A stretch of DNA of 64,000 bases from Nitrospirota bacterium. GTDB lineage: Bacteria > Nitrospirota > UBA9217. The stretch covers positions 192,001-256,000 of the forward strand of contig CAWBNQ010000005.1 of assembly GCA_963790205.1 (NCBI GenBank), written 5' to 3'. Every line of letters begins with the position of its first letter. Position 1 is the first letter of the stretch. A program made the translations under genes and the position numbers. The notes below the pieces were generated by a model, which had not been told where the DNA came from, did not search any database, and saw only the letters and a program-made list of their open reading frames with translations. Positions 46,001 to 63,115 of the stretch are shown piece by piece.

Positions 46001-47326
46001 CACCACGCCTTCGCTTTGAATAAATACGGGTTTATATTCCAGTAGCCCCTCATAGACTGAGCCAAATTCTTCGACATTGAGAGCGGCGTAGTTGACGCGG
46101 ATCACCTGACCTGTGTCAGGATGCTGGTAAAGACCAAGCGAACGCAGACAGCCGAGGAGCACATCATTGCCGAGGGTGCAGCCACCGAGTTGACCGATGG
46201 CAAAGGGGCTGAACAGGTCCCCTGCCAACGGTGCGATTCCAAGTTTTTGACCAGGACCACCGGCTTCAAAAAGACGAAAAGTAGTCAGCAATGAAAGCCA
46301 ATGGTCATTCTTGCGGCGGTCGGCTAAATAACGCTTCTCGGAGAGGCGGCGCAGGCGCTGGAGGCTGTAGTAGTGCTCGTATATATCTCGTTTAGAGGCG
46401 TCCGACTTTACGGGAAAGACAAGGCCGCGCTCCTCGATCACCATCAGGAAGAGGAGGCGATAGATCAGCCGTAGCAGGTGTTGGTAGTAGGCATCAGGTT
46501 CCAGTTCGTCGGAGACCACTGTTTGACGAAGTGAATCGTTGGCGGGATGAGCAAGAAACCCATTTGCAAATTCACGGATAGCACTCTCGACCGCACGGCT
46601 CAAACCATCGCGGATGCGCGCGCCGGAATCAAGGGAGTCTTGGTGATAACGCTCAATAATGCACTCTGCCGAAGTTTCGGGCGAGACAGGCAGCCTTGAT
46701 GCATGCAACAGTCGATAAAGAACAGCAAAATCGGCAAACAAACCGTCGTTGAAGATCCTATCAAGATCGAACTCCAGGTAGGTCAGTTTGACAAGTCGCG
46801 AACTATCACGCAGCAGACGAAGCACTCGGCCGTTTGTTACAAGACCGTACAGTCCATCCGTAAGGTTGAGATACTCTTGCACCATTCCATGCGCAGACAT
46901 GCGTAGGACGGCTTTTTCGGGCTTCCTATCCAGCCCCGCCGGCTCGCGATAACCGACGATATGAACTGGGATACGTCCACGATTACTAAGACGGTGGGAG
47001 ATAGCATAAGTCTTACCATTCAATTCCACGCTCTTTTGCTGGTATTCAAGCTCGTAGCCAAGCAAAGAAAGAAACGGGACTACCCAGAGACTGCGCGTTT
47101 CCGTCGTGGCTGGATTATCGACTTTGACCGCTTCCAATTTTCGCTGAAAAATACGCCAATAGTCCTGTGCATCAGCCCAGGCACGGACAATTTCATCTTT
47201 CACCTTTCTGGATGAGTCGAAACCAAAGTCTAGCGGACGTTGGCCGTTAGCTTCTTCGAGCCGAGTCAGAATGTCAGGTGAAAGGATGGCTCCTTCTATG
47301 CGGATGCTTGGATAGTTCATAGGCAT
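43043..47326 (-). CDS. Large N6-adenine DNA methyltransferase (Eco57I/type IIG, DrmMI-like) with an extra C-terminal domain
   Basis: EEFGSVYEGLL, GSHYTP, DISCGSGH, IYGVDLNP, GNPPY, RYSPS.CF.TFPFP TRD. Confidence 0.9.
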   Translation of the reverse strand: MPMNYPSIRIEGAILSPDILTRLEEANGQRPLDFGFDSSRKVKDEIVRAWADAQDYWRIFQRKLEAVKVDNPATTETRSLWVVPFLSLLGYELEYQQKSVELNGKTYAISHRLSNRGRIPVHIVGYREPAGLDRKPEKAVLRMSAHGMVQEYLNLTDGLYGLVTNGRVLRLLRDSSRLVKLTYLEFDLDRIFNDGLFADFAVLYRLLHASRLPVSPETSAECIIERYHQDSLDSGARIRDGLSRAVESAIREFANGFLAHPANDSLRQTVVSDELEPDAYYQHLLRLIYRLLFLMVIEERGLVFPVKSDASKRDIYEHYYSLQRLRRLSEKRYLADRRKNDHWLSLLTTFRLFEAGGPGQKLGIAPLAGDLFSPFAIGQLGGCTLGNDVLLGCLRSLGLYQHPDTGQVIRVNYAALNVEEFGSVYEGLLEYKPVFIQSEGVVEFDFAPGDQRAVTGSHYTPDDLVQPLIKHSLDYLIADKLKESDREKALLSLRVADISCGSGHILLAAARRIATELAAVRTGEEQPSPAAFRTAVRDVIRECIYGVDLNPLAVELCKVALWLEAHNPGEPLNFLDHHIKCGNAIVGYARWEDVIRGVPDEAFITMPGDDKDISVAFRRRNKSDRANIKQVTLNYSSEILRHRDAVLTRWRELSNLPDRTPSEFDIKKQRYIEFTNSTDAILLEQIAAIPIAQFYLPKTTENQPKLTTDSDFRLYWSGERHPQGQSTAEAWSIAHGKRFFHWFLEFPDIIERGGFDCILGNPPYLGGTHLSGTYGYSFCNYVKWEYAPTGLSDLVAYFVRRIYTLLSPDGITALITTNSIKDGDIRKDGLEQVIVQGGAINFVVRGIKWPGRANIIVSLVGVHKGQWRGKCFIDNREVSVINAYFEDSQDTDAPLVLKQNADVLYEGAKWQGDGFLLNHDEARRMIDRDPRNRDVIFPIINGHELNNHPEQQPEREIINFFDWPLERAQKYSEPIKIVEDRVKPMREKEHDKGAKGKWWIFLRPRMEMTSKIKGLPHCFVAAATTKYLSFSAAPTNIVFSHALKVFTTDRWDLYAVVQSGFHEAWARKYSGALKQDLRYSPSKCFDTFPFPEGLWQTTNAGLTSIGNRYHDHRSTLMRQLWLGLTDIYNLFHDRGMTPSSVAKVSMKTLAESEAGYKGILELRYLHQKLDEAIRDAYGWNNLSLGHDFYEIDTLSENDRIRFTISPGARQEVLKRLLKRNYEIHQQEVNAGLWEEKEVRKVKIVGPESLFLPLLPDIDVDALAATSYPANVSDRTICAAALSIVEYAGVLSSMDHLDALLLATHPEWCKTFLDKKDHAGFRKAVASAPRGLFVETGQSIRWSDCRGHLEQHKAVVIIRAQAEQTINSGLDLLKVKKIFPEGAEAVVKYALKALAQIKTIRTDLLISPEQQAILHIFDQQHKEYALAA

Positions 47327-50202
47327 GCCTCGGCATTCCCGCCATCAGGGAGGAGAATGTAAACACCGAGAAGATCCATTGGCAATACCGGATAAACGAC
47401 CTGAAAACGTTTTGCATCCATAAGTGAACTGAAACGTTCATGGGATTCGACGAGCCGCTTTGATTGTTGCTCGGCAACCTTATCGAACTCTCCTCTTAAA
47501 TTATCAAGAAGTTTAAGTTCGTTTTCCAAGAAACCGGTGCGCGCCTGTGGGGTGAGTTCGGAAGACGCACGGGCCTCGGCCAACAAAACCCTTGCCTGGC
47601 CGTGTTCGAGAAACTCCTTGTCCTGCGGTGTGCCGCGCCATCCCCAGAGCAGCATTTCCTCAGCTACGATCTGGTGTTCACCTTTGCTCTGCTCTATCAC
47701 GTTGCGACATCGGAAAAGCAGCAATGTAGTCTTGGTCTTTACCTGCTTGGTGCGAATGATGGCTGCGCGCGCCGCACATTTATCCACGCGAGCGAGGGTA
47801 TTGGCCATGACAAGCTGACAAAGTTGTTCTACAAAACGGTGGTTACGCCCCAGGTAATGGTAGCCATCGGACGTGGGTGACCGGAAGCTTACTTTGACTG
47901 GATCGCCTTGTGGCAGTAAATCCCTCAACTGGGGCGACATGTTACCCATGACGATTCGGTAACCCTTGGCATCCTTGGTGACCTGCACACCAAGCAGGTT
48001 GTTCAGAACAGAGGTCACGAACTCTTCCACTGCTTTGGGATCGCCTATGGCTTCATCCATCTCACGAAGGTCAGCTTCGATCTCTTGAGCCTTAATGGCA
48101 TTCTGGGCGAAGATGCTACGGGATGCCTTTTCTCTCTCTGCGGCTTCGTCAACTTTGCGGGTGACACTTGCCTTAGCCGAGGCGGCTTCATCAAAACTAC
48201 TGAAGTCGAATTGGATCTGGTGCTTATCACGTTTTTTTTCGATCTGGCGATCAGGATTGAGCAGCAAGGCCTGGGTAATCGTGTCTATGATACTTTGAGA
48301 ATCCTCTGGAAAAGGAACATTGATGCCGGTAGCGCGCTTGATCTCGCGAACCTTGCGTAAGAGCACATCGAGAACGATGCCGTCTATCGGGTTATCCGCC
48401 CCGTAGAGTAGACAAGCCTTTACCTTCGGGGCCATCTGGCCGAATCGATCCACGCGGCCTTCTCGTTGCTCAAGCCGGTTCGGATTCCATGGCAAGTCGT
48501 AATGGAGAACACCGGTAAAGTGTTCTTGCAGATTGATACCTTCGCTCAGGCAGTCGGTTGCAATTAAGATGCGCAACTGAGACTTTCCCATTGCATCTAT
48601 GTGCTGCTTGCGCAGCTCGTCAGGAAGTTCACTCGTTATGACTTGAAGGTCGAGCTTCGGATACTTCTTTTTGAGCGCCGTTTCGAGTTGTGCGCCGATA
48701 TAGTTAGCTGTGGCGATATAACGGCAGAAAACAACTGGGTTGAAGCCTTGCTTTAACCAGTCTTCCAGAATCAGTTCGGCTGAAGCAAGTTTTTGGTCAT
48801 CTTTGATCGAGCTCAATTGCTGCAGTTGCTGGGAGAAGTACCGCATGCGTTCGCGTTGGTGTTTTGTCCAATCATTCCGCTCGATGACCTGAGTGGGCGC
48901 GTTGTCACCTTCGAACCCAAATTCAGTATCACGAACTGGGTTTTCCTCAAACGTTTCCTCACCCGCTAAGGCAGTTTCTGCGTCATCTTTCGCAGCAGAT
49001 GCGAGGTTAGAAAGCCTGGTGTTGAGCATCTCGATACCAGCAGCGGGGCTAGACATCACACCACGCAATAGTGCGAGTGCAGTCCAATATTGGACCCGCT
49101 TCTGGACGCCTCGTTCGGAGTCCGGAGCGATTAGCTTACGAGCAAAGTCGAGGATTTCGTCAAAAAAGTGAGAATAGCTGGTTGAGAGGTCATAGGCCCA
49201 CTCGAAAGCTTCACGCTCAGGGAATGGCGTGTCTTCCCCCATCCATTTTTCGACATCGGCCCGCTTGCGCTGAACAAAGTGACGTGCCAGATCGCGGCGC
49301 TGTGCTTGCGAGGAACTGGGAAGGTCAATCATCTCGAATTCCGGACTGAGCAGGCCGAGCAACGAATGAAATTCCTCGGGCTTCCCGCTGTGCGGTGTGG
49401 CGGTGAGCATGATAAGCTGCTGGTTCGGCTTCTCGGCGATTCTGCTGACAAGATGGTAGCGTTGTTGCTGGCTGGCAGAAGCGCCGGTAGGCCGTGCGCA
49501 GGTATGGGTTTCGTCCACGATCACCATTTCTGGACACTGCTCGACAAATACATCGCGCCTGGTATCGGACTTGATGAAATCAATGCTGATGACTTGGTAA
49601 GGATAGTAATCATAGACACTTGTGTCACCCTGTATCTGCCGGTCGAGTCGTGCCTGGGTGTTGGAGCGAATGATGACCGCCTCAATATCGAGCTTAGCAC
49701 GAATCTCGGCCTGCCACTGTTCGCAGAGATGAGGCAGACATATTACGGCAAAGCGTTTGATCTTGCGTCGCTCCAACAGTTCTTTAACGATGAGCAACGC
49801 CTCTACTGTCTTTCCTACACCGACATCATCGGCAATGAGCAAACGTACCGATTCCTGACGCAAGGCCATGATAAGCGGCACCATCTGGTAGGAACGCGGC
49901 CGGAAGGAGAGTTTTGCCAGGGCGCGAAACGGGCCGGCGCCGTTGCGAAAAGCCAAACGAGCGGAGTCATAGAGCAAGCGGGCTGTGCTGATATCTCCGA
50001 GGTCCAATGCCCCTGGCGACGGAAAGCTCGCATCCTCGGGTTGGTCGGCTTCAATGCCCAGCGGCAGATAAATACCTGCGGTTTCATCGTCAGAGCCACC
50101 AAGCGGTTTGACGATCAAAAGATCTTTATCATCTGATGGGAGGACGATCCAGTCGCGTCCACGGAGGGAGACTAACTTTCCCGGTTGAAGTTGTACTGTC
50201 AT
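47317..50202 (-). CDS. SNF2-type helicase (DrmD-like)
   Basis: DDVGVGKT, DETH, TATPH, YDLPWNPNRLEQREGRVDRFGQ. Confidence 0.9.
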   Translation of the reverse strand: MTVQLQPGKLVSLRGRDWIVLPSDDKDLLIVKPLGGSDDETAGIYLPLGIEADQPEDASFPSPGALDLGDISTARLLYDSARLAFRNGAGPFRALAKLSFRPRSYQMVPLIMALRQESVRLLIADDVGVGKTVEALLIVKELLERRKIKRFAVICLPHLCEQWQAEIRAKLDIEAVIIRSNTQARLDRQIQGDTSVYDYYPYQVISIDFIKSDTRRDVFVEQCPEMVIVDETHTCARPTGASASQQQRYHLVSRIAEKPNQQLIMLTATPHSGKPEEFHSLLGLLSPEFEMIDLPSSSQAQRRDLARHFVQRKRADVEKWMGEDTPFPEREAFEWAYDLSTSYSHFFDEILDFARKLIAPDSERGVQKRVQYWTALALLRGVMSSPAAGIEMLNTRLSNLASAAKDDAETALAGEETFEENPVRDTEFGFEGDNAPTQVIERNDWTKHQRERMRYFSQQLQQLSSIKDDQKLASAELILEDWLKQGFNPVVFCRYIATANYIGAQLETALKKKYPKLDLQVITSELPDELRKQHIDAMGKSQLRILIATDCLSEGINLQEHFTGVLHYDLPWNPNRLEQREGRVDRFGQMAPKVKACLLYGADNPIDGIVLDVLLRKVREIKRATGINVPFPEDSQSIIDTITQALLLNPDRQIEKKRDKHQIQFDFSSFDEAASAKASVTRKVDEAAEREKASRSIFAQNAIKAQEIEADLREMDEAIGDPKAVEEFVTSVLNNLLGVQVTKDAKGYRIVMGNMSPQLRDLLPQGDPVKVSFRSPTSDGYHYLGRNHRFVEQLCQLVMANTLARVDKCAARAAIIRTKQVKTKTTLLLFRCRNVIEQSKGEHQIVAEEMLLWGWRGTPQDKEFLEHGQARVLLAEARASSELTPQARTGFLENELKLLDNLRGEFDKVAEQQSKRLVESHERFSSLMDAKRFQVVYPVLPMDLLGVYILLPDGGNAEACL

Positions 50203-53200
50203 CGCACCTTCCTGAAAATATCCGGACGGGCTGCTATTTTCTCGGCCAGGCTATCCCGATAGTAGTATACCCAGACTTCATCGCCGCGGGCAATGATGGA
50301 CTGACGCTTGGATTCATCATCCTCCCGAACCTGCGGTTCATCGTGGGGGGTGCCGTCGCAGAAGACCCAGATACGCGGTTCGTAGTAAAAGTCCGGTTGC
50401 ACATAAATGCCATCAACACGCTTCTGAGCTGCGTCGGGCAATCGCAGGCCATTCTGATAGAGGTAATCCAGGAACTTTCGCTCTGTCGACGATGTGGGAT
50501 CGAGTCCTCGGGAGATGGTTTGATACTGGTCCTCGTAGCTGCCGAATCCTGTATTCGTCTGGATCTCAATATTACAGATGCGCAATTTCTCAAGAGCGTC
50601 CTTGATGAGATGTCGGTCTATGATCTTATGGTCGCGCTGGTTGTAGTAACTCAGAAGATCGTCATAGCTTGCCGGTCCTTTGTAGTTCTCATCGTCGTAT
50701 CGGCACAGAGTGATCGCCTGCTCTACGACTTTATGAAAAGCCTCCACGTCTTCAACAAATTGCGAAAGGATACCAAGGCTGCCTTCTGCTGCTTCATAGA
50801 GAAGGATGTTAGGCGCTTCAGGATCACCCACAGTGACCACACCGATCTCATTGGGCTCGGCCTGGAACACGCTTTCGATGGCGCGCTTCAGCGCATGCTG
50901 CAAGGTGATGACACCCTCGGGATTCAGTCCAAGTGGCTGTATCGGCTCGATATGCAGTGCATCGGCCAAATTCGAGGTCCAGAGCTTAACGAGTCGGAAT
51001 TCCTCTCTTGGATTTTCCTCCGGATCCGGCATTGAGTCTCGCCAGTCGCCGGATACCAATCCGATGGGGAAACCCTCGGCCTGTCGCGATCGCCACTGAT
51101 AATTGACATGAACCAGACGAGCCGCAGGCACGTAACGAAGATTCAGGAAGTTATTTTCAGCCGTACGCGCCGCGGCTTTACGCACGCGCTCCAGATGGCC
51201 GCCATCAACGGAGAAATAGGTCCTGATATTGTACCCGCGGGATACCCGCTCTTCCTCTTCGCAAGAAATCCGGTCAACCTCTTCGGCGCGCGACTCGGCC
51301 ATTTCCAGCAGATCATGAAGATGTTCCTTATTTGCGTTATCAGCGAGGTTGCAGCCGGTGAAAGGACAGATTTCGAGATCTTTCTGCTCATCCGTCAGGA
51401 AGTACCCGGCTTTTGTGCTGATCTTCACCTCGGTCAGTGCGGACTCCGCGTCTTGGACCACTAATTGGGTAACTTTGTATTTACGGCCGTTATGGTAGAT
51501 ACGGTTTAGTGGACCGAACTCTCGCATAGCAATGGCGCGCGGACGCGAGATGAACTCGCCGGAGGCATCGCTGGTGGGTAGGAAGATACGAAGCGGCAAT
51601 CGGGTGAAATTGTACCCGGGCAGAAACCCTTCCGAGGCCAGGTATCTATAGGGATAAAATTCGGATAATTCTGTTGACCTGCCAAGGTCGTTACGCAGAA
51701 GATCAAGCTGGCGGGTGGCCTGATCCTGGTTTCTCTTTTGTTTTTTGTAGTCGTCACTGCCCAGACCAAGTGTACCACTTTCGATCTTCTGTGTAGCCTT
51801 TGTAAGGATCGTTCTAGCCGAGCGATATAGTTTTCTCCAACGGTCAATAGCTTCGTTAAGATGATCAGCCAGTTTTGACAAGTTATGTTCGACCCACTGA
51901 TCCGAATACCAGCTTGCAGCCTTTGTCTCGAGCTCGGGAGCAAAATCCCTGATCACTCTCCTGAATTCTGCCTTGAGCGTGTTGAACTGGTTCGGCTGAA
52001 TGCTGAGGCCGGAGCGAACCGCAGGTGTAAGCGGCATCTTATCGTTGTCATCAACGATGAACCGCATAATAGACGGCCGGGCTTCTCCCTGAGCTTCCAG
52101 ACCAGGCAGGCCGATCTCAGATACGGTTAGGGCGTTCAGGTGCGTCAGCAATAATTCGCGATTACAGAGATCGAGACGAGGAGCCTGTACCACTCCGGCT
52201 ACGAGTTCAGCCTGGTGCTGAAAGTAGTGACGGTCATGAGGCGAGTAGCTTGAGCAGTAGGTGAATACCAGCGCACCTTGTCCGCTTCGCCCCCCACGGC
52301 CTGACCGCTGGGCGTAATTCGCAGGATTGGGAGGCGCATTGCGGAGATGCACAACATTCAGACCGCCAATATCGATTCCTAATTCCATGGTTGGCGAACA
52401 AAACAATGCGCTTACCGATTCACTTCGAATACGCTTTTCATCAAGCTCCTTCTTGGCTTCGTCGAGATACCAATCGGCACGAAAGCGGTCTTCCCTATCC
52501 AGACGGGCTTCGGTGTTCAATTGCCCAGTATGATCTTCAGCTCGCAGCCTTTTAGTCAAAGAGAAGTCGCGCCGGTACATATCTCTGAAAAACGCATTCG
52601 GCCTGGGTGTTTGGTCCTTGTAAGAGCGCCGCTTTATAACGTCGGACTTTACTGTTTTGCCATCGCCGAGCTTCCAAACGATCTTCTCGATCTTGAGGCG
52701 ATAAATCGGTATTTCTTCGTTCTTATCGCTGCGTGCGAGTTGAGACTTGAGATAATCCGCCTGTTCCAGCTTCGTCATCAGCTGGACAATGAAGTTCCGA
52801 TAGTGGTCGCCCTTAAGATTAATCTCCAGCCCACGTTGCCGGACATAGAGTTTAATGAACTTGCCCAGCGCACTGGCCGGTCCCATGCTTTTTGAAAAGA
52901 GTTTTGCGGAGCGGTGCAGTGGCTCATAGCGGATGACAAAAGGTTCCCGTAATCGCTCTTTCTGGTCCAAGGTCCAGGGAGGACGCAGCATCTCAATGAA
53001 CTGCTTTTCGTTTTCTCTGATCGCATTCTGTGTAAGATAGTTCTCGCTATGGATGGCGTATTCAAGGCGGAAGAAATCGAGAATCGTGCAGACAAACTCT
53101 CTGCGGTCGGCATGACTTAAAGCGCTCAAAAGCGGAATGTCCCGCCAGAAGGTATCCTCTGCAGCGACTTCATCCAAGTCCAGATATTCTATGGATAGCA

Positions 53201-55364
53201 AAGCGCATTGCTCCAAGTTCGGCAGGATGATTCGCCAGCTTCGCCGTAGATCCGCAATAGCGCGGTAGAATAAGTAAGTCTGGAAGCACTGCTCATATCG
53301 TCGTCTGACATTTGCCAGCGGCGGCTCTACGTTGGGGGTAGAATAGTCCAGAAACGACAGGCCAAGCGCTCTAAATACCGCCTCGCCAAGATTGGCATAC
53401 GTGAGGGTATTCCCGGAAGCTTCGTGAAGAGCTTTGTAAATGCCGGCACGAAGGCGGACCACTTGCACGAAATCGTTGAAATGACCGGCCTGGAGCGCGG
53501 CATCTTGTCTGTTGTCGGTAAAACTCAGCAGCTTTTGATCTTTCGGACGATATCCGGCATCATTCAGCTGATTAAGGATCGAGAACGCCATAATGGTCGT
53601 TGAGGTGCTGCGTCCCTCACTGCCCAGTTTTGTCAGCTTTGTACCTTCGTTCGTTTTCGTGTCAAAGAAGACACCGCCTGTTGGGTCAAAAAGCAGTGGG
53701 GCCTTCATGAACCATCCCCACCATTTCAGAGGTTTGGTTTCAGAACAATTTCCAAGCTCATCAAAATGGAGCTTAACGGGAAACAAGGTTTTCTTTTTCG
53801 AATCCGGAACCGGTCCGTTTTTTGTCATTCTCAGCCAGGAGTCCGGCAAAAATTCGAAGTCCTCGGCTAGTTCCCAGACATCTTCGCCGACAATGAGATA
53901 GCCATCTGTCGCTTCTTCATCTTCTTCTGTTTTTTCCCGAAACTCTCGCGGTTCCAGCCGATTGCCGACTCTGGACACACATATGAACGCATGTCCCGTG
54001 GCCCGGCTGAACACATTTGGAAAGAGAGGCTTTTTGTCCCCTTCGTCCTTTTTGAAGATACCCGGCTCCAGAGTAACATAGCGATTCTCGTCCTGATCGA
54101 GTGTAGTATAGACCGATCCTGTTTGAGAGATGAACTGATGCAGTTTAAAAGGTAGGATCGTGTAACGTTGCCTGGCTTCCTGCATTCGTTTGTTCACGAT
54201 GCTGATCCACTGCATAAGATCGACGAGGAACTGTCTGCAGATCGTTTCTGACAACCTGGTTTCTTGCATCAGCATAGCGACGATCGTGCCGATCCGCTGG
54301 GGGGTGCGCCGAATAAGATGGCCATCGTGCGTATCCAGCGCGACATTATTTTCAATCCAGACAGCAACGGGGTTGGCCTTCAAACGCTCAATGTCGTCTT
54401 CTGCGTTAATACCCGCCTTTATGGCTGCGGCGAGCTCCGCGCCCGATGGCAATCTACCGGAGAATGACACCGAACGGGCCAAAGTCTCGTTTATGACTTG
54501 TTCCGGCGTAAATGGCTTACCAAAAAGCGTAGTGGCAACTTTAGCGACCTGTTCGCGTTGCGAAGCGGGACTCCCGACGGAAACCATAGTGGCCGAGGTA
54601 CCGATGCAGGTCACCTCTCGGCTGCATTTGGAGCGGATGCGGCGGATCAACATAGCCACATCAGCGCCTTGGCGTCCACGGTAGGTATGGAGTTCGTCGA
54701 AAACGAGAAAACGCAGGTTGCTGTATATGGAATCACGAATGGAACGCTCCCGAACGCGAGTCAGGAGCAATTCCAGCATCATATAGTTGGTCAGGAGAAC
54801 GTGCGGAGGATTCTCGCGCATCTTTTGGCGTGCCTCTTCCTTCTCCTGTCCGGTATATTGCCCAAAGGTTATTGGGAATCCTCTCGCGCCGCTTTCGTAA
54901 TTAGCTTTGTAGCGGTTAAACTCTTCCGATTGAGAATTGATCAGAGCGTTCATCGGATAAACCACGATGGCTGTTACGCCCGATGTCCCGGGATGGGAGA
55001 GCAAATGGTGGAAGATCGAGCCTATATAGGTCAGAGACTTGCCGGATCCCGTACCAGATGTGACGATGAAATCCCTGCCTGCGGTCCCAAGACGTATTGC
55101 TTCAACCTGGTGCCGGTACAGTGTATATCCTTTAAAGATGTCCGCCGTGTCGGCATGTAAGGCGCCGGACCGTGCAAGATCCGAGACGCTGCCAGACATC
55201 TCGTATGCGGGGTTAAATTGCAAGAGAGGCTCGGGCCACAGTTTACCAACGCGAAGATCCCCTTCTACTACCGCCCGTAAAGTCGGATCGGCAATATTAA
55301 GGAAGCTGCGAATATAGGTCGCGTAGTCCGAAACGATATGCGAGTGCGTCTTGAAAACGTTCAT
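50199..55364 (-). CDS. DEAH helicase + DUF1998 + C-terminal DUF559/Vsr-like nuclease
   Basis: GTGSGKS, DELH, SAT, FTDNRQDAA, QRSGRGGR, HAL..AI..LYE..EG..G, PDFYY....VFCDG.PHD. Confidence 0.9.
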   Translation of the reverse strand: MNVFKTHSHIVSDYATYIRSFLNIADPTLRAVVEGDLRVGKLWPEPLLQFNPAYEMSGSVSDLARSGALHADTADIFKGYTLYRHQVEAIRLGTAGRDFIVTSGTGSGKSLTYIGSIFHHLLSHPGTSGVTAIVVYPMNALINSQSEEFNRYKANYESGARGFPITFGQYTGQEKEEARQKMRENPPHVLLTNYMMLELLLTRVRERSIRDSIYSNLRFLVFDELHTYRGRQGADVAMLIRRIRSKCSREVTCIGTSATMVSVGSPASQREQVAKVATTLFGKPFTPEQVINETLARSVSFSGRLPSGAELAAAIKAGINAEDDIERLKANPVAVWIENNVALDTHDGHLIRRTPQRIGTIVAMLMQETRLSETICRQFLVDLMQWISIVNKRMQEARQRYTILPFKLHQFISQTGSVYTTLDQDENRYVTLEPGIFKKDEGDKKPLFPNVFSRATGHAFICVSRVGNRLEPREFREKTEEDEEATDGYLIVGEDVWELAEDFEFLPDSWLRMTKNGPVPDSKKKTLFPVKLHFDELGNCSETKPLKWWGWFMKAPLLFDPTGGVFFDTKTNEGTKLTKLGSEGRSTSTTIMAFSILNQLNDAGYRPKDQKLLSFTDNRQDAALQAGHFNDFVQVVRLRAGIYKALHEASGNTLTYANLGEAVFRALGLSFLDYSTPNVEPPLANVRRRYEQCFQTYLFYRAIADLRRSWRIILPNLEQCALLSIEYLDLDEVAAEDTFWRDIPLLSALSHADRREFVCTILDFFRLEYAIHSENYLTQNAIRENEKQFIEMLRPPWTLDQKERLREPFVIRYEPLHRSAKLFSKSMGPASALGKFIKLYVRQRGLEINLKGDHYRNFIVQLMTKLEQADYLKSQLARSDKNEEIPIYRLKIEKIVWKLGDGKTVKSDVIKRRSYKDQTPRPNAFFRDMYRRDFSLTKRLRAEDHTGQLNTEARLDREDRFRADWYLDEAKKELDEKRIRSESVSALFCSPTMELGIDIGGLNVVHLRNAPPNPANYAQRSGRGGRSGQGALVFTYCSSYSPHDRHYFQHQAELVAGVVQAPRLDLCNRELLLTHLNALTVSEIGLPGLEAQGEARPSIMRFIVDDNDKMPLTPAVRSGLSIQPNQFNTLKAEFRRVIRDFAPELETKAASWYSDQWVEHNLSKLADHLNEAIDRWRKLYRSARTILTKATQKIESGTLGLGSDDYKKQKRNQDQATRQLDLLRNDLGRSTELSEFYPYRYLASEGFLPGYNFTRLPLRIFLPTSDASGEFISRPRAIAMREFGPLNRIYHNGRKYKVTQLVVQDAESALTEVKISTKAGYFLTDEQKDLEICPFTGCNLADNANKEHLHDLLEMAESRAEEVDRISCEEEERVSRGYNIRTYFSVDGGHLERVRKAAARTAENNFLNLRYVPAARLVHVNYQWRSRQAEGFPIGLVSGDWRDSMPDPEENPREEFRLVKLWTSNLADALHIEPIQPLGLNPEGVITLQHALKRAIESVFQAEPNEIGVVTVGDPEAPNILLYEAAEGSLGILSQFVEDVEAFHKVVEQAITLCRYDDENYKGPASYDDLLSYYNQRDHKIIDRHLIKDALEKLRICNIEIQTNTGFGSYEDQYQTISRGLDPTSSTERKFLDYLYQNGLRLPDAAQKRVDGIYVQPDFYYEPRIWVFCDGTPHDEPQVREDDESKRQSIIARGDEVWVYYYRDSLAEKIAARPDIFRKVR

Positions 55365-55573
55365 GGCAAATCCAGAATCCCTGATACATTCTTGAGTTCT
55401 TTTGCGGTGAGATTGCGGGACTGCTCGGTCGTCTTCCAGGGGAAGTTTTCAAGCAGCTCCCTCGCTTCAATGGAGAGGGCTTCGGCGAGGCTCTTGGGAT
55501 CGTGGAATTGCGCCCAGTCACGCTCGTTTCGGTATGAGATGATCTTTTGCTGGACGGATGAGAACTCAGCCAT
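55361..55573 (-). pseudogene. Truncated MazG-like nucleotide pyrophosphohydrolase
   Basis: ERDWAQFH.PKSLA.ALSIEA.ELLE.F.W is present, but the second E..D motif is missing (70 aa). Confidence 0.7.
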
Positions 55574-55856
55574 GTATCTCCTGCAAAAACTGTTATATAT
55601 GGGCAATTATTTGGAAAACTTTACTACAACTGGGTGCAAAGGGCAAGTAAAGAAACGGGCAATTTTGGGGGGATACGCATTTGACGGCTTTGCTGGCTTA
55701 TACTATAAAATAAAAAAATCTCGAAAGATGTTAGAGAAAATGGCGAACAACTAAAAACAATCTAGAGGGGTTCAACCAGCTGCTTTTTTATCAAGATCAA
55801 AATTAGAGTCAGCTGCTAAGCGAACGTGTGCACGCTAGCAGTTTATGATAAAAATC

Positions 55857-56900
55857 CTAGAGAAAATTGGGTGACACTTTTCCGTTGATCGTAACGGTAA
55901 TAAACCCTTTCATCCTCAGCCAGGCCTCGACGGCGATCCGCCAGGCTGCTTGCGACTGAACACTACCATCACTGCATAGTATATCACCTTGCAAGTTTGT
56001 CATCCAGTCATAGGCAGCGCTCCTTTCCCATTTGGTAAACGTTTTTTTGTTCGTGAAGTACACTTGGCAGGCGTTGCCGCCATGCAGGCACGGACGGGGT
56101 TGGTGGTTAAGGTCATGTTCAACCGTCGATGCATATGCCTCCATGTGCTCGCGCGGACAACTGGACTTATACAAGAGTTTTGCAGCAAGCCCGTTCTTCA
56201 GCTCGGTTTGTGCCTCTTCGATCGCGCCGTTGTAGGGCGGATAATGGACTGGACTGTTCAACGGCAGGACGAAGTAGTCGGCGAGCACAGCATTGACCGC
56301 TGCATGATTCAGGTTCGCGCCATTGTCGCGCTTGAGGAACAGAGGCGCACCGAAGCGATCGAAGGTCGCTGCGAGATAGCCGGATATCTCTTCGCCGCAG
56401 GGCACATCTCCCGTCATAGGAGTGAACTTGTAGCGAGACGCGAGGTCCTGCATATGGTTCAGGTACACCTTGCCACCGTCTGTGTCACGATGTTTGTATT
56501 CACAGGGGTCCATTGACCACGCGACGTTTGGCACGTTCCAGCTGATCCGCCGCAGATTCTGACGATGGAGTGTATTGAGGTCATGCCTCGCCATAGCGAC
56601 CATGCTCTGCAGGTCTCGCCGTGACACAGAGGACGCGTGGCTCCCGTATAATGCGCCCGTGCCCTGCGTGCGGCTCTGCCCGTGAGACAGCTTTGCGATA
56701 TCCCCTGTAATCCCCTCAAGATCCGGAGGCTTGACCTTGGGAGGACCCGGTTGCCGCACGAGGGGCGTGGCGTTCTTCTGTCGCAGACGCCAACGGATAA
56801 AGCTCGGGTAGGGGAGCCTCACGGCACTGCAGATCTCCTGGTAGTGCATACCGGTTTTCTCTCTCATCCGGTCAACAACGGCAAGCATACTGGTTATCAT
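55857..56900 (-). CDS. rve/DDE-type transposase
   Basis: WSMD, LKRDNG.N, SP...P.YNGAIE. Confidence 0.85.
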   Translation of the reverse strand: MITSMLAVVDRMREKTGMHYQEICSAVRLPYPSFIRWRLRQKNATPLVRQPGPPKVKPPDLEGITGDIAKLSHGQSRTQGTGALYGSHASSVSRRDLQSMVAMARHDLNTLHRQNLRRISWNVPNVAWSMDPCEYKHRDTDGGKVYLNHMQDLASRYKFTPMTGDVPCGEEISGYLAATFDRFGAPLFLKRDNGANLNHAAVNAVLADYFVLPLNSPVHYPPYNGAIEEAQTELKNGLAAKLLYKSSCPREHMEAYASTVEHDLNHQPRPCLHGGNACQVYFTNKKTFTKWERSAAYDWMTNLQGDILCSDGSVQSQAAWRIAVEAWLRMKGFITVTINGKVSPNFL

Positions 56901-57277
56901 TTCTTCCTTCGCTTTCGTTTTTTTTCCTCCGACTCGTCAGCTCTTTTTTTCACACGGGCATTGTGGAGTTCATACGCGTGCAGCATGTCCCGCACTTCTA
57001 CCGTTTTCTTAGCGACAAAGAGCTTGTTCTGGAGCTCAGCGATTTGCTCCTGTAAACGCTGTTTCTCCTCGTCCTGCGGTATACTCGGCCTTCCAGGGGA
57101 TTTATCCTCCATGGCCTCGGTCATCGCCTGTAATGCCCGGCGCTCCCACTCGTAGTAGGTCTTCCGCGACACGCCGAGCCTCCGTGCGCCTTCCTCGGCC
57201 GTGATCTGGCCGCTGCGCACTGCAAACACCACCGCAGTCCGCTTTCGGGCAAGCTCCTTGTCTTCTGAGTCGCTCAT
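56897..57277 (-). CDS. HTH protein of the transposon
   Basis: A..LGVSRKTYYEWE.RAL..M...PGRP + coiled coil. Confidence 0.85.
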   Translation of the reverse strand: MSDSEDKELARKRTAVVFAVRSGQITAEEGARRLGVSRKTYYEWERRALQAMTEAMEDKSPGRPSIPQDEEKQRLQEQIAELQNKLFVAKKTVEVRDMLHAYELHNARVKKRADESEEKKRKRRKK

Positions 57278-57294
57278 GCACACCGACCTTTCCG

Positions 57295-57690
57295 TTATGG
57301 GGTCTCAGCCTTGCGCAGGGGGGAGCTTTCGGGCTTCAGGTCCTTTAGCTTCTCCGGTTTCCTTGCTTCCTGCGCCTTCGACAGCGTCTTTTCCAGCCTG
57401 TTCTGTACCGGGAGCATCAGGCGCTTTTTCTCCAGCATCGTCTGCAGCCGCGGGCTGAGCGCCGGCCCCTTGTCCAGGATCACCCGGGGTTCCAGAGCCT
57501 GGAGCATTCCCTCCATCGCCCGTTTCTGCCACTGGGAGAGCACCATCCACGGTATCCCCATCTCCCGGCATACTTCCGCCGGCCTCCGCCGCTCCGTCCA
57601 TATTGAGAGAACCGCCCGGCATTTCTCCATCGCCCCGTGGTTTGTCATCTGCCGCTTCTTCTCGCTTTTTATCTTCTCCGTTTTTTCCAT
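57295..57690 (-). CDS. HTH-like protein of the transposon, overlapping the transposase tail
   Basis: KC.AVLSIW.ERR...EVCRE.GI....L.QWQ.RAMEGML.ALEP; abuts the next gene. Confidence 0.7.
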   Translation of the reverse strand: MEKTEKIKSEKKRQMTNHGAMEKCRAVLSIWTERRRPAEVCREMGIPWMVLSQWQKRAMEGMLQALEPRVILDKGPALSPRLQTMLEKKRLMLPVQNRLEKTLSKAQEARKPEKLKDLKPESSPLRKAETP

Positions 57691-58853
57691 GGCCGGCCCC
57701 TTCTTCGTTTAGATTGTAGACTACTTCCTGCGTGGTGTCATCCTCTTCATCGTCAACCGATAGACGCAGCTTGCCCTTTTCCGCCCGCAGCACTACCGAC
57801 TGCCCCTCCATGCGGCCCACCATGTAGAACGGCAGCTTGGGCTTCCCGCGGAGCGCCATCTCGAGGAGATTCTCCTGGATGCCATGCTCGATCGTCTTCC
57901 TGAGCTCGCTCTGGATCTCAAAATACCGGTCCGCGGGACACAGGCCGCCGATCCCCTGGTGCGGTCGTTTGTGGTTGTAATACTTCACCCACTGCCGTAT
58001 CCGCTCGGCGGCGTCCTCGAAGCTATCGAACTGCGCTCTGACAAGAAACTCCAGGTAGATCGTCTTCCAGAACCGTTCGATTTTGCCCAGGGTCATAGGG
58101 TGGTGTGGTTGGGATTTGATGTGGTGGATCTTGTCTTTCTTGAGCTCCAGCTCAAAACGGCTGTGCCCGCGCCAGCTCGTATACTGCCGCCCGTTATCCG
58201 TGAGCATCTCTTTCGGCGGGTTGTACTCGGAGGACGCCCGGCGGTATACCTCGATAACGTTCTGGCCCGTCTGAGTGCGGAAAAGCTCGAGCCCCGTGAT
58301 GTAGCGGGAGTAATCATCGATGTAGCCGATCAGGTACGCATAGTGGCCGCCAAGACGGAACGTGAAGATGTCCGTTTGCCACAGCTGGTTCGGCGTTGAT
58401 CGTTCGAAAAAACGGGGACGGGTGATATTACGCTGACGCTTCTTAGGCGGGGACTTGATGAGGGATGAATCGTGAAGGGTCTTGCGGACTGTTTCAGGGC
58501 TGGCGGAAAGAAAAAACGCCCTCTTTAAAACCTGTGAAATGCGCTTGATGCCGAAGAGCGGGTTGGCTTCTTTTACCTCGACGATCTTCTGCCTTACCGG
58601 AGAAGGAAGACTGCGCCCCTTACCTCTGTAATTGCGTTGCGAGCCCCGCTTCGCCATGACGACGATAGTCGCGCACCCAGCGCCCGACCGTCCCACTGCT
58701 CAATCCGCATTCCTGCCGAATCACCGAAGCAGGGACGCTTTCTTCAACAAACTTTTTGACGACTTGAAGCTTGAAATCCGGTCCATACCGCTTGCTTCGT
58801 TTCGGGAACTTCCTTTTCCTGCCTACTTGCTGTATACTCTTTTCTGGTTTCAT
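57305..58853 (-). CDS. IS481-like transposase (HTH + rve core), apparent +1 frameshift near 58645
   Basis: N-terminal HTH in ORF 58620..58853; WQTDI, IDDYSR, LTDNG.QY, GKIERF, RPHQG. Confidence 0.85.
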
Positions 58854-59134
58854 GATGACACTCCTTTCAAAACCTAACTTTGGAGTGTCACCCTATTTCC
58901 TCAAATCCTTGTTATCATAAACTGGTCGCTAGGACAGACCTGATGAATCGCGATTGCACATGTTTCATCGGGCCGAGGCATTCGGATTCCAAGTAAATTG
59001 TTATCGCTCATAGTGATCTTATGCTGTCAGATAACGCATTGCGCATAACCTGCGGCGTATGTGCCTCTCTTCCGCAGACTAACTTATGGCCGCCAGATAG
59101 ATACGTTTTATTAGACAGACGCATTAGATGGCCC

Positions 59135-59665
59135 TCAAGCCGATTCGGACGACCGGTGATAGAGGATCACGGCGAGCACACCGGCAAGCATGTACTGATG
59201 GCTTTGCTCCATCTGGTCGAAATGTGTTTAACCACGAACTATGGCTGCCTGGATACGACCCGAGGTGGCCTTCACTAGATCGGCCTGCGCGGCGTCGCTG
59301 AAGCCACCTTGTTCCAAGAGCACGATGTAGTCATTCGGACTCAGTCTCGATCCGTCTGAGTTGACCCATATTCTGCCCTGCTTGCGGACGCCCCAGTTTA
59401 ACCGACTCTGCACACACTCAGCCAGCACATCCTCGCTGTCGTGGTAGCGGGACGGAGGATCACAGGAGTCAAGTTCCACAATAAGCTCGTTGAGAGGTTC
59501 TGCGAAGCTGTCTTCTTCGGGCTCATACCGCTTGGCATCGTGGTCCCACGACAGTTCCCAGTTGCTGCGGATGTGCGACAGGGGACGAAGTACTTCATGG
59601 TCAACCCAGTCGCTCCAGGCAAAGAAGTCCCCTACAGTGGTCATTCGGCCCCCCTGCGACATCAT
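59135..59665 (-). pseudogene. Hypothetical cassette-like gene with an internal TAA at 59228
   Basis: Frame continues RG*THFDQMEQSHQYMLAGVLAVILYHR to TGA 59135; flanked by a 10-bp inverted repeat. Confidence 0.55.
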
Positions 59666-59672
59666 AAGTTCT

Positions 59673-59727
59673 GTCTAATGTTAAGGCTTCTTTCTGAACG
59701 CTTTATTCAGAAAGAAGCTGGTTGGAC
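59673..59727 (-). other. attC-like hairpin at the downstream end of the IS91 module
   Basis: GTCCAAC-CA-GCTTCTTTCTGAA-N7-TTCAGAAAGAAGC-CTTAAC-ATTAGAC, a perfect 13-bp stem. Confidence 0.55.
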
Positions 59728-59876
59728 TAAGCCGTTGCGCGCCACGTCGCTATGGGATTTCAAATGATTTGTCAGCTTAAAACGAAGTCCGCGGAGACAG
59801 CATTGGCAGGGGCGTGAGACTTGTTCGGGTGAAAAGCGGCGATTCCGGACTGCTCCGCAAGCCCCTTTCGTAAAAG

Positions 59877-59905
59877 ACTATACAGGAAAAAGGGCTTTTG
59901 GGCAA
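59877..59905 (-). promoter_or_regulatory. Outward-reading sigma-70 promoter in the IS91 end
   Basis: TTGCCC-N17-TATAGT, conserved in the 23501 copy as TTGCCT-N17-TATAGT. Confidence 0.6.
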
Positions 59906-59985
59906 TAGGGTATCGTTGCGAAAGACGTGACTTTTTTCGGGGATGGATGTCGGAGTCGGGTTGTTCATTTCAGTGCTTGTGGTAA

Positions 59986-61179
59986 TCATATTCGCGGCGG
60001 TCCTTTGCAGCGCGCGGGCTGCATGATCTCGATTGTGCGCATTCTGCGTTCGCCGCAGGCAGGGCATTTGGCCACGTCAATGCCGGCGATCCTGAGCAAA
60101 GCTTCCTGCCACGTCTCAGTCTTCTGCTCCGCCTCGTTCTGATCAACGCAGGCCAGAAGCTCTCTGCATTGGTCGAGTTTCTTTCTGCGGCATCTGTTTC
60201 CCAACAGACCGTAATGCCTGATTTTGACAAACCGGTCGGGCAGGACATGAAGCAGGAACCGCCGGATGAACTCATCGGCGTCCACGGTCATGATCTTGCT
60301 TTTGTTGCTGTCCGCGTAGTCGCGCCACCGGAAGGAGATCTTGTCGTCCATCATCTTCACGAGCCGGTGATTGCTGATCGCGATACGGTGGGTGTATCTG
60401 CCGAGATACTCAAGAACGCCTTTTGTTCCGTCGAACGGCGGCTTACAATAGACGACCCACTGCTTCTTGTACAAATCGGCGATGAAGGCCTTGAAAACTC
60501 CCGGCGACGCAAGATGGCTTACGACGCCGGGGTAGACAAGTTTGTTCTCGGCACGGAGTTTTTTCAGATAAGCGAGAAACTTCCCCCGAAAGAGTTTCGA
60601 CATGACCTTGACGGGAAGGAAAAAGCCATTCTTGCATGATTTCCATTTCCGTCCGCCCTTGGACAATCCGCCGCCGGTGACGATGTTGTGGAGATGCGGA
60701 TGATCCATAAGGTTCTGTCCCCAGGTGTGCAGGATCGAGATAAAACCGATTTCCGCGCCCAAGTGTTTCTGCGTATTCGAGAGTTCCGTCAGGGTTTCCG
60801 AAACGGCCTTGAACAGGATCCCGTAGAGGGCCTCCTGGTTCCGGAGCACAAGGGGATTGAGTTTATCGGGGATGGTAAAAACGACATGGAAGTAAGGAAT
60901 GGGAAGCAGGTCTTCTTCCCGGGCCTCGATCCACTGCTCTTTTTTAAGGAACTGGCACTTGGGGCAATGCCGGTTTCTGCAGGAGTTGTACGAGATCACT
61001 TTTGTCCCGCAGTGCTCGCATTCGTCCACGTGACCGCCTTGGTCGGCGGTGCGGCAGGTCTCGATCGCCCGCATGGCGCGAAGACGATTCAAGGGCATGG
61101 GATGAGCGTTCCGGTAAAGAGGACCGTACCGGCGAAAGATGTCCGCGACTTCGATCTGTAGGCTATCTCGCGTGTACAC
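59986..61179 (-). CDS. IS91-family rolling-circle (HUH, Y2) transposase
   Basis: SCRNRHCPKCQ, HVVFT, HTWG...HPHLH, YLGRYTHR, KIRHYG. Confidence 0.95.
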   Translation of the reverse strand: MYTRDSLQIEVADIFRRYGPLYRNAHPMPLNRLRAMRAIETCRTADQGGHVDECEHCGTKVISYNSCRNRHCPKCQFLKKEQWIEAREEDLLPIPYFHVVFTIPDKLNPLVLRNQEALYGILFKAVSETLTELSNTQKHLGAEIGFISILHTWGQNLMDHPHLHNIVTGGGLSKGGRKWKSCKNGFFLPVKVMSKLFRGKFLAYLKKLRAENKLVYPGVVSHLASPGVFKAFIADLYKKQWVVYCKPPFDGTKGVLEYLGRYTHRIAISNHRLVKMMDDKISFRWRDYADSNKSKIMTVDADEFIRRFLLHVLPDRFVKIRHYGLLGNRCRRKKLDQCRELLACVDQNEAEQKTETWQEALLRIAGIDVAKCPACGERRMRTIEIMQPARCKGPPRI

Positions 61180-61200
61180 CGCGGGTGTCGCGTGTGCAGG

Positions 61201-62058
61201 CTACGAGGTTTGTGGAGGATTTAAGAAGGGGCCTAAGTCCAGAGGGCTCACGATCTTTGAGAGGTTCTTTTTGCTCACGTGGAGATAAATAGTGGTCGTT
61301 CTCACCGACGCATGGCCGAGCAGAAGCTGAATATAGTGCAGATCAGCTCCCGACTCCAGCAGGTGTGTGGCGAAGCTATGCCGAAGCGTGTGACAACTTG
61401 CCGGCTTCGTGATGCCGGCTTTTTTCTTCGCGCGTTTGAACGCCTCTTGGACGGTGCTAATGGAAATGTAGTTTTCAGGCTTTTCTCCCGGAAAGAGCCA
61501 ATGCGTCGGTCTATATTCTTTCCAGTATTCCCGAAGCGCTTCCAGCGCTACCTGGGATAAAAGGGTATACCGGTCTTTTTTGCCTTTGCCCTGGTCCACG
61601 CGTATCAGCATACGGCTGCTGTCGATGTCCGTGATCTTGAGCCGGGCGGTCTCGCTCGCCCGGAGCCCTGCCGAGTAGGTCACCATCAGCATCACGCGCT
61701 GCTTCAGGCTGGGAGTGGCTTCGAACATGGCCTGTACCTCCTCCCGTTCGAGAACGATAGGAAGTGTCTTGGTCGTCTTCGGATAGGGAATCTTGTCCAT
61801 CACCCAACCTTTGCCCAGCGTCGTTTCATAGAGGAACCGCAGCGCGCTGTAAGTTATCTTCAGGGTGGATAGCGATACCTTCTTATCCCGGACGAGGTAA
61901 AGCAGATACGCTTTGACATCGCCGTCTTCCAAAAGGTCGGGCGGTTTTTTAAAATGGCGTTCCATATCGCGCGCCGCCCGGTGATACAATGATTGCGTCT
62001 TCGGGGCTAATCCTCGAAGCACCATGTCGCCCTGCATCTGTTCTTTGAACGTTTCCAT
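61201..62058 (-). CDS. Tyrosine recombinase with an N-terminal SAM-like domain
   Basis: GLRASE, GKGKKDR, HTLRHSFATH, LLGH, TT.Y. Confidence 0.95.
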   Translation of the reverse strand: METFKEQMQGDMVLRGLAPKTQSLYHRAARDMERHFKKPPDLLEDGDVKAYLLYLVRDKKVSLSTLKITYSALRFLYETTLGKGWVMDKIPYPKTTKTLPIVLEREEVQAMFEATPSLKQRVMLMVTYSAGLRASETARLKITDIDSSRMLIRVDQGKGKKDRYTLLSQVALEALREYWKEYRPTHWLFPGEKPENYISISTVQEAFKRAKKKAGITKPASCHTLRHSFATHLLESGADLHYIQLLLGHASVRTTTIYLHVSKKNLSKIVSPLDLGPFLNPPQTS

Positions 62059-62468
62059 TGCATAATCTCCTTCCGTTGAATCGAAATTCCAACGGCATGA
62101 CGCCGATGGTGATGCGAAAGAAGATTGTAGAACGGTCAGGATTATGAAGCAAGGAGCGAGACGAAGAAAATCTATCGAGATATGCGGGGATGAATTGTAG
62201 AGAGACTTATTGGAATGCGAATAACACCGCCGCGCAGCGGCTTAGTTCAATAAGTGTTTATCTTGCCGTCTCCGGCTAGGAAAGACCGATTTTTCGGTAT
62301 TTACCAGTTTGCGATGATTGTGCCTAGTTTTAATTTAAATAACTATATTCCTGATCGACAGTATTGTCAATCGCCGGGTAGAGGTATCAACAGTTATTTA
62401 ATTCCAGATGAAGGTGTGCTTGTTGCGAAGCACGACAACTCGAATACTACAGGAAGAAGTTGCTGCTA

Positions 62469-62888
62469 TTACAAATCTTCAATCCACAGTAATGATTTGC
62501 CAAGTGGCGTACTCTTTAGCGCGGCATAGAACTTTTTGTCTGCAGTGACAAGACGGCATTCTTGAGTCTGTGCTACAGAGAGGTATAGACTATCATAGAA
62601 AGATCGTTGATAGCGTTTTGCTATTGTCCAAGTAACATCGAGAATCATTTCGGAAGAATAAATAACAAGAGGTATACGTCTAAAATCCAAAAGAATTTTT
62701 GTAGCAGAATCTGCGTCGATTTCCTCAGCCCTCCATTTTTTCCACAGAACATTTCCGAATTCCGCGAAAATGAGATCCGGGGCTAAGAGCTCAAATTCCT
62801 TATTGAGTAAGCGCAGCGCTTCGCGCGAATGAATCTCCGGCAGAAACCATTTGACGGATACGCTTGCATCAACAACATATTGCTTCAA
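62469..62888 (-). CDS. vapC: VapC PIN toxin
   Basis: YVVDASV..KW, APD...E..N, YD.LY, LVTAD. Confidence 0.92.
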   Translation of the reverse strand: MKQYVVDASVSVKWFLPEIHSREALRLLNKEFELLAPDLIFAEFGNVLWKKWRAEEIDADSATKILLDFRRIPLVIYSSEMILDVTWTIAKRYQRSFYDSLYLSVAQTQECRLVTADKKFYAALKSTPLGKSLLWIEDL

Positions 62889-63115
62889 CGGTCTCGGTCC
62901 TCTCTGACCAGGAAGGCGCTATCGCTAAACTTCTTGCCAGCAAGACGTTTCTGCCAGTCCCTGGCTACGTTTGAAGCTTCGGCCATTGATAATTTTGCTG
63001 CGTTTTGCAAAATTATTTTTACCTCTCCCTGCAGTGAACGTTCATGCTGCTTGGCTCTCCTCTTGAGACGCTCGATTGTTTCCTTTTCCAAATCGCGAAC
63101 TAGTAGCTGCGCCAT
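62885..63115 (-). CDS. vapB: FitA-like ribbon-helix-helix antitoxin
   Basis: MAQLLVRDL....ERLK.RA....RSLQ.E; 4-nt overlap with vapC. Confidence 0.88.
   Translation of the reverse strand: MAQLLVRDLEKETIERLKRRAKQHERSLQGEVKIILQNAAKLSMAEASNVARDWQKRLAGKKFSDSAFLVREDRDR

Follow-up and report, generated by a model that had tools for sequence, protein, structure and literature searches.

The minus strand of a 64,000-nucleotide stretch of a Nitrospirota genome (contig CAWBNQ010000005.1, positions 192,001 to 256,000; the whole stretch is herein referred to as the window) carries a 2,572-bp mobile element at window positions 59679-62250, in which the gene for a tyrosine recombinase related to the integron integrase IntI lies directly upstream of an IS91-type transposase gene. 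We hypothesize that this element probably moves as a self-propelled cassette: its HUH protein would generate circles, and its own recombinase would integrate the folded junction of their joined ends at x↓TT (the arrow marks the crossover), the position at which integron cassettes cross over. We observe exact ends, seven copies in the host genome, a crossover 3′ of x, targets of the form AA-N7-TT and an end-to-end junction in DNA data. A sequence-only reading of the same DNA had proposed either a module that captures and expresses cassettes or one that itself moves as a cassette, and had asked whether the junctions of homologous modules would coincide with the xTT box; they do so in all seven copies and, together with the end-to-end junction, support the second proposal.

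A Two-Gene Element with Exact Ends

The ends are fixed by the flanks of the seven copies in the host genome, which share 99.9% identity (the transposase is frameshifted in one of them). The features of the element are as follows (window positions).

59679-62250, minus strand: whole mobile element, TTGAAC...CCTTAACA; seven genome copies, with flanks diverging exactly at the ends
62229-62250, minus strand: left end, in which the TT core precedes GAAC (read as GTTC on the opposite strand) and a palindrome rich in GC
61201-62058, minus strand: tyrosine recombinase, 285 amino acids, IntI-related, without the IntI insertion (PF00589, PF13495)
59986-61179, minus strand: IS91-type HUH-Y2 transposase/Rep, 397 amino acids (PF04986, PF14319)
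59877-59905, minus strand: outward promoter-like site TTGCCC-N17-TATAGT, matching 9 of 12 consensus positions
59750-59756, minus strand: CCCATAG motif, a candidate HUH origin, conserved in close relatives, ISAzo26, the NGR234 element and a 175-bp mini-element
59721-59741, minus strand: R″-like arm ending GTCCAAC, an inverted copy of the left end (18/21)
59687-59717, minus strand: inner stem of the right-end hairpin, perfect, with no extrahelical base
59677-59679, minus strand: crossover at the right end, A↓TT, to which the element contributes A and the target TT, in 7/7 copies

Both enzymes appear intact and maintained. The catalytic residues of the recombinase (R133, K158, H223, R226, H249 and Y258) and the motifs of the transposase (H162 and H164; Y258 and Y262) are intact, and dN/dS values of 0.04-0.15 for the recombinase and 0.09-0.20 for the transposase (11 pairs) indicate that both genes are under purifying selection. 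The transposase scores 471 bits against NF033538 (cut-off 125); no solved structure was found for it. The best solved relative of the recombinase is IntI4, whose residues 179-240 are spanned by residues 177-196 of the query, approximately 42 residues being missing, and hence the IntI-specific insertion is absent, as the sequence-only reading had recognized. Against TIGR02249, the recombinase scores 204.6 bits, in two pieces, below the cut-off of 265. In a quick tree of 73 proteins (midpoint-rooted and with long-branch warnings), the element recombinases (support 86) and IntI (support 99) form one group (support 100), and the other recombinases, which by their matches appear to be Xer- and RIT-like, fall outside it. 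This placement is in line with the description of IS91 recombinases as the closest homologs of IntI, without its insertion (10.1101/542381).

The anatomy of the ends is less simple than it first appeared. The 18/21 inverted repeat that had been thought to bound the module is present (59721-59741 and 62231-62251), but it is terminal only at the left; at the right it is subterminal, and the element ends 42 nucleotides further out, at 59679. The left end is terIS-like and also corresponds to the R′-like arm of the junction described below; it is conserved from Nitrospirota to Bacillota and Planctomycetota, ISAzo26 and NGR234. The 55-nucleotide hairpin GTCCAAC...ATTAGAC (59727-59673), noticed in the earlier reading, folds far beyond chance (59670-59730: z of -5.6 on one strand and -6.3 on the other), and new flanks begin at 59673-59677 in public sequencing runs; Rfam gave no match at 58900-62500. 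The CCCATAG motif, which we take to resemble oriIS, may serve as the HUH origin. The predicted TTGCCC-N17-TATAGT site is likewise present; its match alone is not beyond chance (four sites of this kind in the region, against 2.3 ± 1.4 in shuffles), and the pattern recurs at 9 of 20 related right ends.

All complete elements that were measured are 2.5-2.6 kb long, apart from one mini form, a nonautonomous derivative of approximately 175 bp (L095:3501-3680, minus reading) that retains both ends and CCCATAG and sits at the G↓TT of an attC site. Three remnants of the right ends of related elements also occur in the host genome, G000 (C1:331877-332216, C3:666986-667496 and C5:215456-215725), two of them just before attI-like sequence.

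Crossover Point and Target Sites

The left junction reads x↓TTGAAC, with x being G in six copies and A in one, and the right junction reads ...CCTTAACA↓TT in all seven. Because x varies at the left end and is always A at the right, the crossover lies 3′ of x; because two relatives (L008 and L011) keep the left TT despite a right flank of TA, it lies 5′ of the second T. Secondary sites of IntI are likewise described as GWT, with cleavage between positions -1 and 1 (10.1101/2022.09.11.507474). All seven targets (five distinct flanks) carry AA at positions -9/-8, giving an AA-N7-TT site. The 58 metagenome matches gave 52 distinct left flanks; of these, 36 have G and 13 have A at position -1, and 15 carry AA at -9/-8, as compared with 37 of 728 background positions.

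These targets depart from those of IS91, which is reported to insert next to a tetranucleotide (GTTC, CTTG or GTCC) abutting oriIS (PMC13181058). None of the seven right flanks has GTTC, CTTG or GTCC; they consist of TT followed by variable bases, and the element thus fails the IS91 target rule in every copy. This bears directly on a classical IS91 rolling-circle scheme, in which the HUH enzyme would carry out strand transfer itself and the recombinase would act as an accessory resolvase or targeting factor. Such a scheme would suit the complete IS91 transposase, which has both the HUH and the Y2 motif, as well as the GTTC and palindrome of the left end, a combination that marks terIS (PMC13181058), and the CTTG found in a second family; yet the boundary lies 2 nucleotides outside GTTC, the ori-like motif lies approximately 70 nucleotides inside the right end, and the ends are fixed in all seven copies with no one-ended products seen. 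We regard the classical scheme as decidedly unlikely.

The range of sites entered by the family is broad. Four of the seven copies follow an attI-family block (the window copy and those on C1, at C3 525873 and on C6), and forward attC sites are used by relatives at L089 and L106 (by rule) and at L068, L088 and L095 (by eye). Backwards insertion at the L box of an attI-family site is seen at L010 and as a loose end in run X6. Relatives and ISAzo26 are also found in CATAA-N6-TTATG cores (for the relatives, these or similar cores at L150:950-970, L151:960-985, L014, L015, L008 and L011) beside other recombinase genes, presumably Xer- or RIT-like, and the family may therefore parasitize recombinase sites generally.

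Two further groups of relatives were noticed. One (L076, L081, L094, L099, L103, L112 and L114) has left flanks with ACATA-N4/5-CGGA/CCGA before TT, which suggests a subfamily with its own target preference. The other, more distant subfamily (L123-L138, in G405; recombinase 34-37% identical) comprises some ten nearly identical copies, which are bounded by ATTCAAG...CTTGAAT-hairpin-G↓ATT and lie in DNA that varies and is apparently non-integron; CTTG takes the place of GTTC there, both being IS91 cleavage tetranucleotides.

Joined Ends and Their Predicted Folding

End-to-end joining was found in DNA data. In public run X1, a contig joint leads from 62248 to 59677, going back exactly 2,572 bases (depth 4.9, side 37), and is present at both 85% and 95% likeness. 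A relative whose recombinase is 71% identical (L092) is represented by a contig of 2,673 nucleotides in which the right end is joined to the left, with a terminal overlap of 81 nucleotides, and in a remnant on C3 a stretch resembling a left end comes after a right end.

When the ends are joined in silico, they are predicted to form one long hairpin, with the 21-bp repeat as the outer stem and the right-end hairpin as the inner stem. Across 14 complete elements this fold has z values of -7.3 to -11.6 (40 shuffles each), with the bottom strand more stable in 13, and the inner stems vary in sequence among lineages while their pairing is kept. The boxes are separated by arms of 5 and 9 nucleotides in 16 of 20 right ends and of 4 and 9 in two, and arms of 5 and 9 are visible by eye in ISAzo26 and in the element of Sinorhizobium fredii NGR234; those of attC sites are 7 and 8 nucleotides. 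The joined ends are hence predicted to be attC-like without being attC, having no extrahelical bases and arms of 5/9.

An alternative route would be that of a minimal integrative element, a duplex circle that the recombinase excises and integrates by two strand exchanges, the HUH protein only replicating it and the hairpin acting as a replication or binding signal. The recombinase's lack of the I2 domain agrees with such a route, as does the resemblance of the targets to symmetric duplex recombinase sites (AA-N6/7-TT), and IntI itself is described as keeping two-strand exchange on duplex sites (PMC4792948). Read as a duplex, however, the circle junction has GC rather than AA seven bases before TT, and the partner box appears only after folding, the pairing being kept while the sequence changes. 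The target overlaps also vary freely, which two-strand exchange tolerates poorly. We consider the duplex route unlikely.

Proposed Mechanism

In the single-stranded route that we favor, the element would leave as a circle. The HUH protein may nick at or near CCCATAG and roll out bottom-strand single-stranded circles, which would explain the gain of copies; IS91 is reported to insert from bottom-strand single-stranded circles (PMC13181058). Within the integrated copy, a roll from ori to ter would drop the 70 nucleotides to the right of CCCATAG, and the recombinase therefore probably makes the first circle. The joined ends would fold into the attC-like hairpin, and the folded bottom strand would present one good recombinase box, such that the recombinase would exchange one strand between this box, the outer one of the fold, and a duplex site at its x↓TT. 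Only one strand would be exchanged because the inner box is out of register (arms of 5 against 9 nucleotides), which would prevent a second cut, with replication resolving the junction as it does for cassettes. In integrons, I2 and extrahelical bases are described as selecting the strand and blocking the second cut (PMC4792948); if arm geometry limits exchange to one strand here, the I2 domain would not be needed. The outward promoter could read across the junction into the recombinase gene and drive both genes in the circle and, once integrated, would read downstream cassettes and keep them expressed.

Several observations weigh against this account. The end-to-end joint was found in one of seven public runs and not among the joints listed for the other six (contigs of such runs show presence, not absence), and X1 may not be independent of the assembly because it holds the flank of the genome's C3 copy. 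The joined ends of X1, L092 and the C3 remnant fit a free circle or a head-to-tail dimer alike, and the junction data do not separate single- from double-stranded DNA. The predicted strand bias is modest, mostly 1.3-4 kcal/mol, with one element favoring the top strand; the arm rule failed on two of 20 right ends, in a search that allowed 4-6 and 8-10 nucleotides and among sequences that are related; and the recombinase lacks I2 just as the hairpin lacks extrahelical bases. By a strict flank rule, 55 of 71 distinct left flanks are not integron sites, and the 16 of integron type include one that is an end of the element itself (the classifier is conservative and misses some sites seen by eye). 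Finally, the host genome has three IntI-scoring genes, which may thus have moved the seven copies, and scoring in the two genomes richest in relatives took in only a part of the candidates, as given below.

Spread and Probable Independence from IntI

The possibility that a host IntI moves the element as a true cassette, with the two genes as passengers, must be considered. The core and inverse-core layout is that of a cassette, an attI-family block stands before four copies, a gene with an attC comes after a fifth (on C14), and IntI genes are present in a host whose integrase could in principle use GWT secondary sites as well, as IntI is described to do (10.1101/2022.09.11.507474). However, relatives spread in multiple copies in genomes without detectable IntI. 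Within 64 genomes of the family, 13 have a transposase match and 28 have an IntI over the cut-off; the two with most transposase matches (G036 and G037, with 14 and 19, the majority from a more distant subfamily) gave no IntI match among the 29 of 38 and 29 of 74 candidates that were scored. None of five further host genomes reaches the IntI cut-off, one of them (G404) having a split IntI-like match. Insertions at N6 cores and backwards at L boxes, the absence of extrahelical bases and the strong purifying selection on the element's recombinase also speak against IntI as the mover, and we judge this explanation very unlikely.

The transposase matches 374 of 72,556 plasmid records (E 1e-60). 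The IntI genes of the host genome, G000 (C5:72813-73748, C6:109461-110378 and C3:627383-628156) are of a long form with an N-terminal extension, and the copies on C6 and C3 appear frameshifted or broken.

The Host Platform and Its Cassette

The DNA on both sides of the element belongs to a platform of the host, of which the upstream part (62251-62370), comprising an attI-family site and a promoter, had escaped the sequence-only reading. Its features are as follows.

62342-62370, minus strand: host platform promoter TTGACA-N17-TATAGT, outside the element, matching 11 of 12 consensus positions
62251-62324, minus strand: attI-family block, split by the element, with an L-box-like AGATAAA (62263-62257), 5 nucleotides and A↓TT
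59135-59644, minus strand: cassette gene of approximately 169 codons (168-residue alignment to P0001, 87.5%)
59043-59119, minus strand: inverse core at 59119-59110 (TCTGTCTAAT) and an attC-like stretch, decayed, whose last bases are GTTATGC (59049-59043)

The 75 bp left of the element form a conserved block that is shared with 22 other loci up to the crossover, and 16 of these continue in the same register with TT and unrelated genes, without the element. No IntI match was found within the block loci, approximately 1.5 kb on each side; the same block adjoins a real intI on contig C6 and in L075, and we therefore read it as a member of the attI family. The promoter, which appears to be Pc-like, is also present upstream of this block at several related loci. 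Loci L030-L058 and L105 carry the 75-bp block at unrelated chromosomal places, often with the TTGACA-N17-TATAGT promoter, some 20 of the block loci having no intI within approximately 1.5 kb, and several begin with a core-like GTTAGG or TTAGG, as if the block itself had inserted like a cassette. The idea of an intI stub upstream in the window was rejected: what lies 250 nucleotides upstream is a PIN-domain gene, and the nearest IntI on the contig is approximately 180 kb away.

Downstream of the element, the cassette gene had been placed some 5 nucleotides after the hairpin (at 59665), but its homologs, of 165-169 amino acids, start at the ATG at 59644. There is an in-frame stop at 59230-59228, and the reading frame ends at 59135, 15 nucleotides before the inverse core; a 145-amino-acid gene was rejected in view of the homologs' length and the internal stop. 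The gene matched no Pfam or NCBIfam family. A search of 400 other genomes found a homolog in one (G308), where an attC-like hairpin stands on either side of it. The perfect 10-bp inverted repeat (59670-59679 and 59110-59119) is present as had been read, and the attC that follows the inverse core folds poorly (z +0.6; -0.055 kcal per nucleotide). The window cassette is thus real but decayed, and the order along the window is promoter, attI, element and the old first cassette of an intI-less platform; under the proposed mechanism, the target in the window would be the platform's attI-family site.

The capture proposal of the sequence-only reading, in which cassettes would be acquired at the right end of the element and transcribed from the promoter that points outward, draws on the cassette that follows the right end in the window, on the attC-bearing genes that follow the copies on C1, C6 and C14 and on the outward promoter conserved in 9 of 20 ends, ISCR elements being described as having outward promoters (PMC6218425). 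It is not supported by the in silico removal of the element, which restores an intact, conserved attI-family site with its own promoter, joined directly to the cassette core. Moreover, 16 of the 22 other block loci have variable genes after the block although they lack the element, the copies at ordinary sites show no cassettes, and no element was seen with extra genes between its ends, so that we hold capture to be the least probable of the explanations considered here. Because the attI-family block, the promoter and the cassette core belong to the host platform, the element is a passenger of such platforms and not a platform itself. Copies with an attI-like site before them have cassettes behind them. 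The copies at C3 721569 and C3 283753 lie in ordinary intergenic DNA, with no downstream attC by a first finder, whose criteria were strict enough to pass over attC sites that the eye can recognize. A second finder recovered three attC sites in the C6 array, with three weak background matches in 12 kb, and its negatives are soft because it missed the C14 and C1 sites.

Surroundings of the Platform

Behind the cassette, the array is interrupted by a 3,110-bp IS481-like element (window 55827-58936) that ends in TGT...ACA and carries three helix-turn-helix genes besides two rve transposase genes; at least seven whole copies of it exist, with no target duplication in the flanks inspected. Further along (window 40970-55606), large minus-strand genes, including SNF2 (47317-50202) and DEAD/MZB (50199-55364) helicases, form a block that looks like a defense island, and the guanine-plus-cytosine content is lower at 38-46 kb of the window. 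Just upstream of the attI block is a pair of genes for a FitA-like antitoxin and a PIN-domain toxin (window 62469-63115); a gene just beyond the window (past 64000), which we take to be ArdC-like, suggests an integrated conjugative element.

Implications

The element appears to parasitize the sites of integrons and of other recombinases, and it may provide downstream cassettes with a new promoter. If the proposed mechanism is correct, it would account for a catalogued and widespread IS91 subgroup whose boundaries and targets depart from the IS91 rule. The origin of attC sites and of the I2 domain of IntI has been posed as a chicken-and-egg problem (PMC4792948). It is conceivable, if on balance rather improbable, that these elements are a living intermediate in the origin of integrons, with an I2-less sister of IntI recombining a folded single strand fed to it by an HUH enzyme; IntI and attC would then descend from such a recombinase and its joined ends, and the elements might shuffle cassettes in trans on intI-less platforms. 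The question of where attC sites and I2 came from becomes testable with standard integron assays through an intact two-gene element whose recombinase is among the closest I2-less relatives of IntI, whose ends are exact, whose targets are known and whose junction has been observed.

Comparison with Known Systems

The closest catalogued relative is ISAzo26 (Aromatoleum aromaticum EbN1, NC_006824.1), which matches the element in its two genes and their order (48% identity for the recombinase, 50% for the transposase) and shares its left end, the CCCATAG motif, an R″-like arm and a 5/9 hairpin; it sits in a CATAA-N6-TTATG core, whereas the copies described here are in AA-N7-TT sites, four of seven after an attI-family block. 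This shared anatomy of the ends makes the element a member of a catalogued IS91 subgroup, the ISAzo26 type with an upstream tyrosine recombinase, to which ISShvi3, ISWz1 and ISSod25 presumably also belong. No account of the ends or mechanism of this subgroup was found in the literature covered, which left aside subscription journals, ISfinder and TnPedia pages and supplements.

With IS91, IS801, IS1294 and ISCR, the element shares an HUH-Y2 transposase, joined ends and an outward promoter; a terIS-like GTTC and palindrome are present too, but 2 nucleotides inside its boundary. Unlike canonical IS91, it carries a recombinase and has no GTTC/CTTG target; canonical IS91 is also characterized by the absence of terminal inverted repeats, whereas a 21-bp repeat (18/21) is shared between the ends here. 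With integron cassettes it shares the layout of core, inverse core and hairpin, the x↓TT crossover, an IntI-related enzyme and insertion at attI-family, attC and secondary sites; it differs in having its own I2-less recombinase, no extrahelical bases, arms of 5/9 and a long 21-bp outer stem, and in inserting also backwards and at N6 cores. Nor does it resemble an integron platform, given that the attI-family block lies outside the element and the recombinase is oriented with the cassette rather than divergently.

Two further systems offer instructive parallels. The phage CTX-phi integrates as a folded single strand through one strand exchange by the host XerCD at dif. CTX-phi and other Xer-exploiting elements thus provide a rolling-circle single strand, a folded att site and one strand exchange into a duplex, as we propose here; the present element differs in encoding its own enzyme, using many targets and lacking phage genes. 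Insertion of the CTX-phi type has been named replication-dependent recombinase insertion, in a source that also describes integrative elements that circularize in a strand-biased manner (SEs), likewise recombinase-based and forming strand-biased circles (PMC9345347). Unlike the element, SEs are described with two recombinases and four core genes but without an HUH endonuclease (PMC9345347). Taken together, these comparisons indicate that the element is neither a canonical IS91, an integron nor a canonical cassette, and that it likely works like a cassette with enzymes of its own.

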